The position numbers and the translations under genes were made by a program. Below, in pieces: positions 25,342 through 27,707 of a DNA stretch of 32,000 nucleotides; the stretch's first letter is position 1; each line of letters starts with the position of its first letter. This DNA is from Psychrobacter sp. DM4 (GTDB lineage Bacteria > Pseudomonadota > Gammaproteobacteria > Pseudomonadales > Moraxellaceae), in the NCBI RefSeq assembly GCF_051307035.1, contig NZ_CP195536.1, positions 2,190,001 through 2,222,000 on the forward strand, in the 5' to 3' direction. The notes below the pieces were generated by a model, which was not told the DNA's origin, did not search any database, and saw only the letters and a list, made by a program, of their open reading frames with translations.

Positions 25342-25387
25342 TTGTCCGAAACTTGGTTGTCGTACTTAATCTACTCTATACTACTAA

Positions 25388-26320
25388 TTATCCATCTTCA
25401 CAATGCCTACTTACTACGACATTGACACTTATTATTCTTGGGTCTTCAAAAACGGCTAAATTTTGAGTAAGCTTCATAGTTGTCGTACAAAAAATAGTAT
25501 AGTCATCCTCTATAGCCTCGGTTACTTCACATGTTTGTTCTAAGCTAGGAGGTCTACTAGCACTCATTACACAGATTATATCTTTGATGTCAGTCATATT
25601 AATTCCAGCTTTATTTAACCCTTCCAAATAATTACTCTTGAAACTATCCTTGTTATCTTCGCCTGTATAAATTGTTGGAAGTATATTTAATAGTCTGTTA
25701 CCGCTGAATACATGCTTCCAATCATTAAAGTCATAGCCAATCATAGAGTCGTCCTGCCTATAAACGCTACAAACTGTAGTTACAACTGAATCTATAAAGG
25801 AGTAATAAAAGTTATAACTCTCAATACTCATATCGTTTACAAAATCATTTTTTGCTTGTGATGTGATGAAAGGTATAGCAAAAGTAGGAATAGATGATAG
25901 TGTGCTCGCCTTATCTCTTAAAGCATTCTGGGGTTTGGTCTTGAAACTACTTATTTCACCTATGGTTGAAGGAAGGATTGCAAAAGTCAGTGCTGATATA
26001 GTAGCTACTTCTTCTTGAAAAACGCGTAAACCATCAAAGCTAGCCTCCTTTTCAACTAAAAAAACTATGACTTTCTGACTTTTGAGTTGCTGATCTCTAT
26101 CGACTTCTGTCATATTCTTTAAATCGTCTAAACTAACTATTTTAAAATCTGAATCATGGATATCGATTTTTAAATATCTATTAGAGGCTTTATTAAACCT
26201 ATCTCTACCAATATTCTGCGCTACCTTCTCAGTTATTTGACCTGTTGTGACGAGCATAAATCCTTCAGGTTCTTTGTGATTAGGAATATCACTCATTGTA
26301 TATTTAGAAGTACTGCTCAT
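25388..26320 (-). CDS. hypothetical protein, 310 aa; possible highly divergent FtsZ/tubulin-superfamily fold without GTP-binding glycine loops
   Basis: Uninterrupted ORF in a very AT-rich context. My manual alignment to E. coli FtsZ, recalled from memory, is collinear across the core. Example blocks (window protein vs FtsZ):
- VDRDQQLKSQKVIVFLVEKEASFDG vs [29 protein letters not shown]
- MIGYDFNDWKHVF vs LMNVDFADVRTVM
- TGEDNKDSF vs SGEDRAEEA
- IKDIICVMSASRPPSLEQ vs ARGVLVNITAGFDLRLDE

No statistical score was computed. Confidence 0.55.
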   Translation of the reverse strand: MSSTSKYTMSDIPNHKEPEGFMLVTTGQITEKVAQNIGRDRFNKASNRYLKIDIHDSDFKIVSLDDLKNMTEVDRDQQLKSQKVIVFLVEKEASFDGLRVFQEEVATISALTFAILPSTIGEISSFKTKPQNALRDKASTLSSIPTFAIPFITSQAKNDFVNDMSIESYNFYYSFIDSVVTTVCSVYRQDDSMIGYDFNDWKHVFSGNRLLNILPTIYTGEDNKDSFKSNYLEGLNKAGINMTDIKDIICVMSASRPPSLEQTCEVTEAIEDDYTIFCTTTMKLTQNLAVFEDPRIISVNVVVSRHCEDG

Positions 26321-26370
26321 AGTAACGAACTCTTTGTCATGTTTTGGAAAGTATGGATGTATGTGTTATT

Positions 26371-26399
26371 TTGATAAACTTAATTTGATAATTTAAACT
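26371..26399 (+). promoter_or_regulatory. candidate sigma70-type promoter for the PD-(D/E)XK gene in the divergent intergenic region
   Basis: TTGATA (26371-26376), 17-nt spacer, TAAACT (26394-26399). The region also carries a tandem A(A/T)TTTGATAA motif at 26368-26377 and 26382-26391. Confidence 0.3.
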
Positions 26400-26414
26400 A
26401 AAATCACTAGGAAA

Positions 26415-27707
26415 ATGACTGTGCTCAACAATAATTTTAAACAAAAAATTTCAAGTTTACAGGATAAGGAACAAGCCTCTCTAAAGAATCACAATGATAC
26501 AAAACAAGATTTTAATATATTTACGATCTTGCGTAAGACAGGTGAAGAAGTTGGTTTGCACTCTCGCTTCCTTGCCGAATTACTCAATAGAAATGCTAGT
26601 CATAAAATAGCAGACTTTCAACAATTATTCATTGAAACCGTATTAAATAATGCCATAGCAACACAAGAATGGAATCGAGAAAAATTAAGTCCTAAAGATG
26701 ACTACAGTTGTGAAATTGAATATAGTTTTCGTAATTCAGATCATGGTAGAGCTGATATCATTCTCAAAAACAAAAACAACGTTATTGTTGTCGAAAACAA
26801 GACTTATGCTTTTGATCAAAAAGGTCAACTGGCTAAATATTATAAAGCGTGCCAAGAATTGGGCTATGACGATAAAAATATTTACATAGTATATTTAAAT
26901 CGTTTCGGGGATGATGTGTCGCCCTATGGACAGGGAAATATTAGTAATGAAGACTATGGCGTGATTAGCTATAAAGAGGATGTTTTTAACTTTTTAAAAC
27001 TATGTAAGGCAAAGGTAGTAGATTATCCGCATATAGAACAGACTATTGAGCAGTATATTAATACTGTTGCTCGGATTACAGGTCAAACAAGGAATGCGAA
27101 AATGAAACAAGAGTATGTAGTATTTTTGGCAGATGAAAATAACTTTAAAACTGTCTATAAACTGAGCCAGAACTTTGAAACCATTCAAAAAAATATTCAG
27201 AACGATATGTGGGATGACCTATTGGCTTATCTTAAGGAGAGAAATCTAGCGTTTACCTTTTGTGATAATCAGTTATCAACCTATAGTCAAGAAAAAGCAG
27301 TAAAGCAGTATTTCTCAGGTGGCAGCACTAAAAATAAAGCTAAGACCTATGGAATTTGCTACAAAATAGTAGATAAAGGTGACATAGAGGTTTACTGTTA
27401 TGTTGAATTAAACCATCGTTTGTATTACAGCGTTACTCTAGTAGAGAAAGATGGGGTACGTCTGCCAGAATATCCAACCGACCTTGAAGGCTTTAAAGAT
27501 AAGGTTATAGCATTACGCAAAAACTGGGAAGGTAAAAATAAGAAGAAAAACTTAGGTGGAATTATTTATCCGCAACGCCCAGTCAACTTCAAAAAACCTA
27601 ACGCTAATTTTTTCGATATTATCAACGAGAAGAGTCGCAAAGAGTGGGTTGCTGAAACTGCTGACGATGTTATTCAACTAATTAATGATGTAAAGAGTAT
27701 TTCATGA
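26415..27707 (+). CDS. PD-(D/E)XK nuclease family protein (PDDEXK_4-like N-terminal half, unassigned C-terminal half)
   Basis: The N-terminal FNIFTILRKTGEEVGLHSRFLAELLN motif and the core GRADIILKNKNNVIVVENKTYAFDQKGQLAKY (D114 .. E127-x-K129 .. QLxxY) match the restriction-endonuclease-like PD-(D/E)XK signature as recalled for Pfam PDDEXK_4. Residues from about 200 to 430 carry no motif I recognise. Confidence 0.75.
   Translation: MTVLNNNFKQKISSLQDKEQASLKNHNDTKQDFNIFTILRKTGEEVGLHSRFLAELLNRNASHKIADFQQLFIETVLNNAIATQEWNREKLSPKDDYSCEIEYSFRNSDHGRADIILKNKNNVIVVENKTYAFDQKGQLAKYYKACQELGYDDKNIYIVYLNRFGDDVSPYGQGNISNEDYGVISYKEDVFNFLKLCKAKVVDYPHIEQTIEQYINTVARITGQTRNAKMKQEYVVFLADENNFKTVYKLSQNFETIQKNIQNDMWDDLLAYLKERNLAFTFCDNQLSTYSQEKAVKQYFSGGSTKNKAKTYGICYKIVDKGDIEVYCYVELNHRLYYSVTLVEKDGVRLPEYPTDLEGFKDKVIALRKNWEGKNKKKNLGGIIYPQRPVNFKKPNANFFDIINEKSRKEWVAETADDVIQLINDVKSIS

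Follow-up and report, generated by a model that had tools for sequence, protein, structure and literature searches.

A candidate PDC-S26 nuclease gene and its divergent Psychrobacter-specific neighbour in a variable, probably defence-related slot behind uvrA

The PDC systems, which have been added to PADLOC, are 145 untested candidates for phage defence identified by guilt-by-embedding, as they occur within loci of BREX, DISARM and type I restriction-modification (RM) systems (Payne et al., bioRxiv 10.1101/2024.01.29.577857). The nuclease domain PDDEXK_4 (Pfam PF14281) is placed within the PD-(D/E)XK phosphodiesterase superfamily (Steczkiewicz et al. 2012, PMC3424549). Here we describe a pair of genes, one of which belongs to a PDC family and carries this domain, in a stretch of 32,000 nucleotides from Psychrobacter sp. 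DM4 (contig NZ_CP195536.1, positions 2,190,001 to 2,222,000; the whole stretch is called the window below, and its coordinates are used throughout). Chromosomal defence hot spots, in which variable cargo lies between conserved core genes, occur in E. coli, Vibrio and Pseudomonas. The islet in the window lies behind uvrA and consists of gene A (25388-26320, minus strand), an open reading frame (ORF) of 310 amino acids, and gene B (26415-27707, plus strand), an ORF of 430 amino acids from its first start. On balance, we regard the islet as interchangeable cargo in a hot spot of this kind, with gene B as a candidate PDC-S26 effector and gene A as its putative accessory. Our confidence in this reading is limited because PDC-S26 is a candidate family and because the role of gene A is deduced from adjacency at a single locus.

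Gene B is a member of the PDC-S26 family with an intact nuclease core. The PADLOC profile PDLC04983 (PDC-S26) matches the protein over its full length (E 1.1e-106; residues 6-427 on positions 10-407 of the 413 in the profile), and seven more PDC-S26 profiles match it as well. Residues 33-216 match Pfam PDDEXK_4 with an E value of 3.9e-27 and 95.8 bits (gathering cut-off 22.3), and this match covers the whole domain model (1-183 of 183). Among 33 homologues spanning 20-100% identity, E45, H49, E102, D114, E127 and K129 are invariant (residue numbers follow the 430-amino-acid version), and all invariant columns but one, G313, lie in the N-terminal half. The ratio of nonsynonymous to synonymous substitution rates (dN/dS) of the gene is 0.12-0.20. 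A preliminary description of this DNA, made from the letters and a list of ORFs, had called a PD-(D/E)XK nuclease with D114, E127 and K129 as catalytic residues, and was right in both the domain and the residues. It had not recognised the pairing as any named defence system, whereas the PADLOC run places the nuclease in the single-gene candidate PDC-S26, an outcome that the description itself had listed as speaking against its reading.

The likelier start of gene B is the GTG at 26421, which gives 428 amino acids, because the NCBI protein of Psychrobacter sp. DM4 that is 100% identical to it has this length, a ribosome-binding site AGGAAA is present at 26409-26414, 7 nt upstream of the GTG, and the orthologue in the metagenome contig L176 starts GTGCTCAAC without an upstream ATG. 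From this start, the nuclease domain occupies the N-terminal half (26421-27062) and a faster-evolving domain the C-terminal half (27063-27707), both on the plus strand. The latter, about 210 residues, lies within the PDC-S26 profile match, and the Pfam search found no domain in it. A sequence and profile search of the PDB with gene B found no related solved structure. Identity among orthologues is 72-96% in the N-terminal half and 61-80% in the C-terminal half.

Comparison with the related genome P2G3 indicates how the islet has moved. Identity between the two genomes is about 85% in uvrA and 95-99% in a block that comprises gene A, the intergenic region and the initial 600 bp of gene B, and hence gene A, the control region and the nuclease domain have moved recently between lineages as one piece. 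At approximately 27050-27150 (gene B residues ~212-245) the identity drops from 98-99% to 71-79%, a recombination breakpoint which coincides with the junction of the nuclease domain and the C-terminal half. The protein P0025 shows the same kind of mosaic, with 96% identity in the N-terminal half and 71% in the C-terminal half. The two mosaics thus indicate that the C-terminal domain of gene B has been exchanged separately, in the manner of an exchangeable specificity module.

Paralogues 38-45% identical to gene B are present at another locus in P. urativorans and strain I-STPA10, and on plasmids and contigs more distant relatives adjoin genes for AbiE, KAP NTPase (nucleoside triphosphatase), DUF4365 and WYL. 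The paralogues (loci L003, 5606-9269, and L004, 5573-9293) come last in a conserved same-strand cluster, in which an APH-like kinase gene, an ORF of 89-99 amino acids and a GATase_4 gene precede the PDDEXK_4 gene; in this cluster at a fixed locus, the nuclease family may have another context, made up of several genes.

The slot in which the pair resides has conserved borders and highly variable contents. The neighbourhood of the major facilitator superfamily (MFS) gene and uvrA was taken from 80 Psychrobacter species representatives, the genes of the window were mapped onto them, and slot statistics were obtained from the 51 loci with both uvrA and DUF503. The borders are the uvrA terminator hairpin (24720-24753, plus strand), consisting of a G+C-rich inverted repeat and a T run behind it, and the DUF503 gene (29456-29737, minus strand; Pfam PF04456, E 3.1e-20). 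The hairpin (AAGGCNACTCTTT..GGAGTGGCCTTTTTT) is kept after uvrA in essentially all 80 loci, and DUF503 is found right of the slot at 86-98% identity in most of them, with a few lower or partial matches. The uvrA-DUF503 gap ranges from 228 bp in L048, where the slot is effectively empty, to 5972 bp, and its G+C content (GC) is 0.30-0.43 over the 51 loci. The cargo differs strongly between species and comprises more than 40 families, among them PDC-S49/KAP NTPase (16 species), AbiTii, AbiH, PDC-S31, PRTase with NADAR (PDC-M42C), methyltransferase, NACHT, RelA_SpoT, NERD with SEC-C, DUF5677 and insertion sequence (IS) elements.

Gene A and gene B together occupy the slot in only three of the 51 loci (L056, L072 and L080). 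Protein look-ups found the pair at the same position also in P2G3, in CAL346 (the same genome as locus L056), in three assemblies sharing the protein P0036 and in a JGI contig. The occurrence of the islet among relatives is thus patchy, and both this and the recognised defence genes which the slot carries in other species agree with the defence islet of foreign composition that had been proposed from the window. The composition itself is clear-cut. In 300-nt windows, GC is 0.30-0.37 across 25400-27700, whereas uvrA on one side and the esterase gene on the other have 0.44-0.54; the two islet genes have GC of 0.340 and 0.337, compared to 0.48 in the esterase gene and 0.44 in the whole window. 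At third codon positions (GC3) the two genes have 0.27 and 0.30, whereas uvrA has 0.50, the MFS gene 0.53, the esterase gene 0.43 and DUF503 0.60, so that the AT-rich stretch first noticed by sampling is confirmed at both levels. No Rfam family was found in the islet region and, as the preliminary description had also stated, no tRNA, no integrase or transposase in the window copy of the islet, and no repeats around it in the window that could be insertion scars.

The co-occurrence of the two genes is asymmetric: gene A is always beside gene B, and gene B also occurs alone. In every assessable context of gene A, of which there are at least nine (the window, L001, L002, L005-L007, L072, L080 and L180), gene B is divergent at a distance of about 95 bp, and gene A without gene B was never seen among these contexts. 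In the window, 94 bp separate the two ORFs in the ORF list, exactly the divergent layout originally described. The divergent control region (26321-26420) is conserved across orthologous loci, the mean column identity of the intergenic region being 84% over six of them, and a σ70-like site, TTGATA-17-TAAACT, at 26371-26399 faces gene B. L176 contains a 67%-identical gene B 183 bp after uvrA and no gene A, and gene A is likewise missing beside the gene B relatives of L003, L004, L088, L089 and the plasmid homologues. The region upstream of the L176 gene B is not alignable to the intergenic region of the window, and the boundaries of a gene A insertion can therefore not be defined. Gene B can thus occur without gene A, and the two do not make up an obligate system, as shown by L176, the paralogous loci and the plasmid homologues.

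Gene A encodes a protein confined to Psychrobacter. All its 23 homologues come from this genus and all are at least 65% identical; the frame of 310 amino acids is kept across 65-95% identity and dN/dS is 0.29-0.38, which shows that gene A is a real gene under purifying selection. It has no match in Pfam, PADLOC, NCBIfam or PHROGs, the PDB sequence and profile search produced nothing useful, and no homologue was found in 72,556 plasmids or in 50,697 phage records. A profile of 14 homologues scored against 1.8 billion cluster representatives retrieved the gene's own cluster, a fragment of 105 amino acids and three long repeat proteins with weak, piled-up matches. Models and predicted secondary structure suggest a protein of the α/β type.

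Two of the repeat proteins, P0058 and P0060, match gene A residues 222-268 (approximately 25517-25657, minus strand) with E values of 4e-9 and 2e-4, summed from 10 and 7 stretches, respectively. The repeats read ..LLKALEEMGINLSNISSML.G.GAKAPETLQKL.., and one of the two proteins possibly has, by eye, a SET-domain-like C-terminus. These matches are probably noise or a shared short helical motif and not homology. As for alleles of gene A, an IS630-family element removes its 3' end in L005 (6248-7905) and L007 (6-1664), leaving 253 amino acids, while gene A is intact (306 amino acids) in L006 (4472-5392), whose gene B protein is identical to that of the truncated assemblies. The truncated and the intact alleles thus constitute a natural knock-out and wild type.

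The preliminary description had aligned gene A by eye along the FtsZ core and read it as a degenerate FtsZ/tubulin-like protein. Several comparisons were made which bear on this reading. Gene A had no match to Pfam Tubulin, FtsZ_C or Tubulin_2 at E up to 1, and the PDB profile search at E up to 10 returned neither FtsZ nor TubZ. When gene A was aligned by hhalign with a single E. coli FtsZ sequence entered by hand, the probability was 0.1%; with a profile of 82 FtsZ sequences (2 from two viral-contig scans and 80 from a metagenome scan), P was 0.05-0.06 and the probability approximately 1%. The default alignment placed gene A residues 192-272 on FtsZ 207-287, from the T7 loop through H10, and the greedy mode gave a colinear alignment of 229 columns (gene A 43-303 on FtsZ 26-315) that reproduces the one made by eye. 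The greedy score was reached by 3 of 100 shuffles of the gene A alignment in 12-column blocks and by none of 100 in 25-column blocks. An FtsZ hidden Markov model (HMM) scored 4.9 bits on gene A (P 8e-4 as a single test) and hit the same region in nearly all of 22 orthologues; decoys that scored at least as high numbered 6 among 2000 mono-shuffles, 51 among 2000 block shuffles and 41 among 814 real ORFs of the same genomes, and the top decoys shown were Rossmann-type proteins with a VIGVGG-like motif.

Structure prediction pointed to FtsZ in one of two models. AlphaFold2 was run on gene A twice, with the window protein first (14 sequences) and with a 68%-identical orthologue first (23 sequences), and both models were poor, with a predicted local distance difference test score (pLDDT) of 44 and 43, because the family is too shallow. 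For the first model, about the first 18 matches in the Foldseek ranking of PDB entries were FtsZ (E 0.009-0.04, about 250 aligned columns, probability up to 0.77), with a template modelling (TM) score of only 0.28. For the second model, no FtsZ was among the top 50 matches listed. A viral structure library contained no PhuZ or TubZ match to the gene A model, only Ras-like partial ones. In these models of pLDDT ~44, the predicted helices and strands follow one another in an order that would fit an FtsZ-like α/β core of two domains. The most conserved block of gene A, GYDFNDWKHVF, aligns with the FtsZ T7 loop NVDFADVRTVM, so that the invariant G195-Y-D197-F-N-D200-W-K faces N-V-D-F-A-D-V-R in both hhalign and hmmsearch, at a score not above the decoys. 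The nucleotide-binding loops T1 (GxGGGG) and T4 (GGGTG[ST]G) are absent, and there is no glycine-rich loop within the 310 residues. The T4 position faces EKEASFDGLRVF in the colinear alignment; the T1 region is outside the hhalign range and would, by eye, face VTTGQITEK.

Taken as an accessory gene beside a candidate effector, the islet can be pictured as follows. Gene B, with its intact metal-binding and catalytic core E45, D114 and E127-x-K129, would cut nucleic acid, most probably the DNA of an invading phage or plasmid, or might act as an abortive-infection nuclease, and its C-terminal half would set the recognition target or the moment of firing. Gene A would be a lineage-specific, soluble α/β addition, transcribed divergently from the conserved 100-bp control region, and in one Psychrobacter clade it may modulate gene B, whether as regulator, sensor or adaptor, possibly through physical interaction of the two proteins; gene B would be tolerated and present without needing it. 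Several observations weigh against this picture. The defence function of PDC-S26 is deduced from genomic context, and the family is a candidate (bioRxiv 10.1101/2024.01.29.577857). The 38-45% identical paralogues end a conserved, housekeeping-looking operon at a fixed locus in two species, which is less defence-like. L176 holds gene B at the same locus without gene A. In the two assemblies where IS630 cuts gene A, gene B does not differ from that of the strain in which gene A is intact, so that gene A may be dispensable or unrelated. It is found at one locus in one genus, and its adjacency to gene B could reflect a single insertion and shared descent rather than a function. Finally, the synonymous divergence (dS) from L072 is discordant (gene A 0.17, gene B 1.09), which indicates that the two do not always share a history and that recombination also separates them. 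The two genes might instead be independent cargo with no functional connection, gene B being a stand-alone PDC-S26 gene and gene A an orphan inserted once between uvrA and gene B and then carried along. The definition of PDC-S26 as a single-gene candidate, the lone gene B at L176, at the paralogous loci and on plasmids, the cut gene A beside an unchanged gene B, the discordant dS and the habit of the slot of stacking unrelated single genes agree with it. Against it stand the constant divergent arrangement, spacing and conserved intergenic region in at least nine contexts, the absence of any context with gene A and no gene B, and the 95-99% block shared with P2G3, which spans gene A to the nuclease half without a breakpoint between the genes. 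We consider independent cargo a serious possibility, though a rather unlikely one. The constant architecture and the transfer as one block slightly favour an accessory role of gene A over that of an unrelated neighbour. A toxin-immunity module, in which gene A would neutralise the nuclease until infection in the manner of an antitoxin, would explain why a nuclease adjoins a small protein that never occurs without it; this is improbable since gene B is kept without gene A in L176 and beside the truncated gene A, the genes are divergent and form no operon, and 310 amino acids are large for an antitoxin.

The remaining explanations concern the nature of gene A itself. It might be a degenerate FtsZ/tubulin-fold protein which lost GTP binding, kept a T7-like loop and works with the nuclease, for example on host FtsZ or phage tubulin filaments. 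The rank of FtsZ in the search with the first model, the colinear alignment with its shuffling results, the position of the conserved block on the T7 loop and the predicted helix and strand order all point in this direction, whereas the failure of the Pfam and PDB-profile searches, the hhalign probability of ~1%, the missing glycine loops at the aligned positions, the low pLDDT, the replicate model without FtsZ in the top 50 listed, the viral matches confined to Ras-like ones and the decoys reaching the HMM score point away from it. The hints agree with each other, none of them is significant and the fold match is not reproducible. The FtsZ-like reading of the preliminary description is thus not established; the resemblance is a lead from which superfamily membership cannot be demonstrated, and we consider the fold itself doubtful. 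The more specific proposal that gene A is an extremely diverged FtsZ/tubulin-fold sensor or effector partner of the PDC-S26 nuclease, with nucleotide binding lost and the T7-like acidic loop kept, is a long shot. Such a partner might dock on the GTP-bound face of a host FtsZ or phage tubulin (PhuZ/TubZ) filament and couple the filament status to nuclease activity or to an arrest of cell division, and if this were true, bacterial immune modules would gain in gene A their first component with a cytoskeletal fold. A decayed TubZ-like partition remnant of a phage or plasmid, which had also been suggested, or a DNA-repair accessory of uvrA would fit the position next to uvrA and the faint FtsZ-like hints. 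Both are hardly credible: there are no homologues of gene A among the plasmids and phage records searched, a TubR- or ParB-like gene is missing, purifying selection acts on both genes (the dN/dS of gene A denotes selection and not decay), and the pair is present in only three of 51 species, all of which have uvrA. A TubZRC-type partition module was rejected on similar grounds, with no plasmid or phage homologue and no adjoining small DNA-binding gene or iterated repeats.

Within the window, the islet is accompanied by other variable modules of the slot. The part next to uvrA contains a lipoprotein-like gene of 88 amino acids (25013-25279, plus strand) with a lipobox-like N-terminus, MKKLLFIILASTVGISAC, which represents a separate variable module. 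It is followed by a second uvrA-type terminator hairpin (25311-25344; terminator-like site at 25309-25338), a direct repeat 88% identical to the first and probably a bidirectional terminator serving both the lipoprotein gene and gene A. The pattern search found these two copies in the window where none was expected by chance, and the hairpin duplicated around the lipoprotein module is the sole meaningful repeat near the islet. Of the 80 species loci, about 25 have the lipoprotein gene beside uvrA, and there the second copy always follows it; the hairpin is duplicated wherever the module occurs, and a few loci hold a third copy deeper in the slot. Copies are also located in L050 (4684/5883/6434), L061 (608/1467/2060), L071 (4728/6370), L037 (5502/6359) and L087. 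As the copies mark module borders, the cargo may be inserted next to the hairpin or bring it along. Exchange of the slot seems to proceed through homologous recombination in the flanks, with hairpin copies recurring at the borders of the modules.

On the right side, gene B is followed by an Abhydrolase_3 esterase gene (27704-28756, plus strand; Pfam PF07859, E 3e-71) and by an ABM-family gene of 101 amino acids (28957-29262, plus strand; Pfam PF03992, E 4.6e-19). Both are variable cargo, and the esterase gene is outside the system. In P2G3, CAL346, L072 and L080, DUF503 comes directly after gene B without the esterase gene, which is missing at this position in nearly all relatives; the slot of L076 has a 74%-identical partial copy and those of L036 and L039 short fragments. 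The ABM gene was found in the slot of only one other species locus, L036. The esterase gene, which the preliminary description had counted among the conserved housekeeping genes, is therefore no fixed flank, and on the uvrA side the lipoprotein gene intervenes. The start codon of the esterase gene overlaps with the stop codon of gene B (ATGA at 27704-27707), and with its GC of 0.48 next to 0.34 in gene B it appears to be a recently juxtaposed gene which is now, judging by this overlap, translationally coupled or co-transcribed.

Some further features of the region deserve mention. Among the slot occupants, a protein of 1292 amino acids and a family of 356 amino acids had no Pfam or PADLOC match, and the slot also holds a NACHT NTPase and, not recognised by PADLOC, a protein with a RelA_SpoT domain; these occupants (L035 2370-6248, L013 4422-6161, L051 5076-6311 and L052 5035-6105) are possibly further uncatalogued defence genes. 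Beyond the slot, a ThrE/ThrE_2 pair lies between DUF503 and a glutathione-reductase-like gene in most relatives (L001 4488-6035) and is missing from the window (29738-29885), L045, L048 and L078, which makes a second presence/absence polymorphism. The DUF2846 lipoprotein gene of the window (31367-31828) is homologous to a cargo gene of 153 amino acids within the slot of seven other species, so genes evidently shuttle between the slot and nearby positions.

With respect to known systems, gene B resembles PDC-S26 in size (~410-430 amino acids) and in the N-terminal PDDEXK_4 nuclease. PDC-S26 is, however, defined as a single gene, whereas in the clade of the window a constant divergent neighbour, gene A, has been acquired, and while the family was defined inside BREX, DISARM and type I RM loci, gene B resides in a chromosomal slot behind uvrA with none of these nearby. 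The domain match is complete and includes the conserved D...E-x-K core, although Pfam covers residues 33-216 only and the C-terminal 210 residues are the variable part. The locus thus provides a natural setting for PDC-S26, with an intact catalytic core, a C-terminal domain shuffled at its boundary and a clade-specific companion gene. It differs from type II toxin-antitoxin systems in that gene B persists without gene A (L176, IS630 alleles) and in that the genes are divergent and form no operon. L176 and the IS630 alleles are cases of natural loss of the companion gene and can serve as ready-made controls for phage challenge.

Set beside the FtsZ/tubulin superfamily (FtsZ, TubZ, PhuZ, CetZ), gene A has approximately the length of the FtsZ core and a similar predicted order of strands and helices, its DFxDxK/RxV block aligns with the T7 loop, and one poor model retrieves FtsZ first; it differs by the absence of the nucleotide-binding loops, by lacking significant sequence or profile similarity and by a fold match that was not reproduced. 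Should gene A prove to be FtsZ-like, the known immune components would gain a notable member; on present evidence, the pair is a modest extension of known patterns. The slot behind uvrA is analogous to known defence hot spots in its conserved flanks (the uvrA terminator and DUF503), its empty site of 228 bp in L048 and its AT-rich, species-specific cargo including Abi, STAND/NACHT, KAP NTPase and IS elements, but has no integrase or recognisable mobile-element backbone. It is a compact, integrase-free hot spot in a cold-adapted genus which has been little studied for phage defence. A hot spot as such is a standard phenomenon, and the empty site and the more than 40 cargo families make this one open to mining. 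Gene B already falls within a known candidate family; what is new in comparison with it is that an orphan gene is its constant partner here and that there is mosaicism at the domain boundary.

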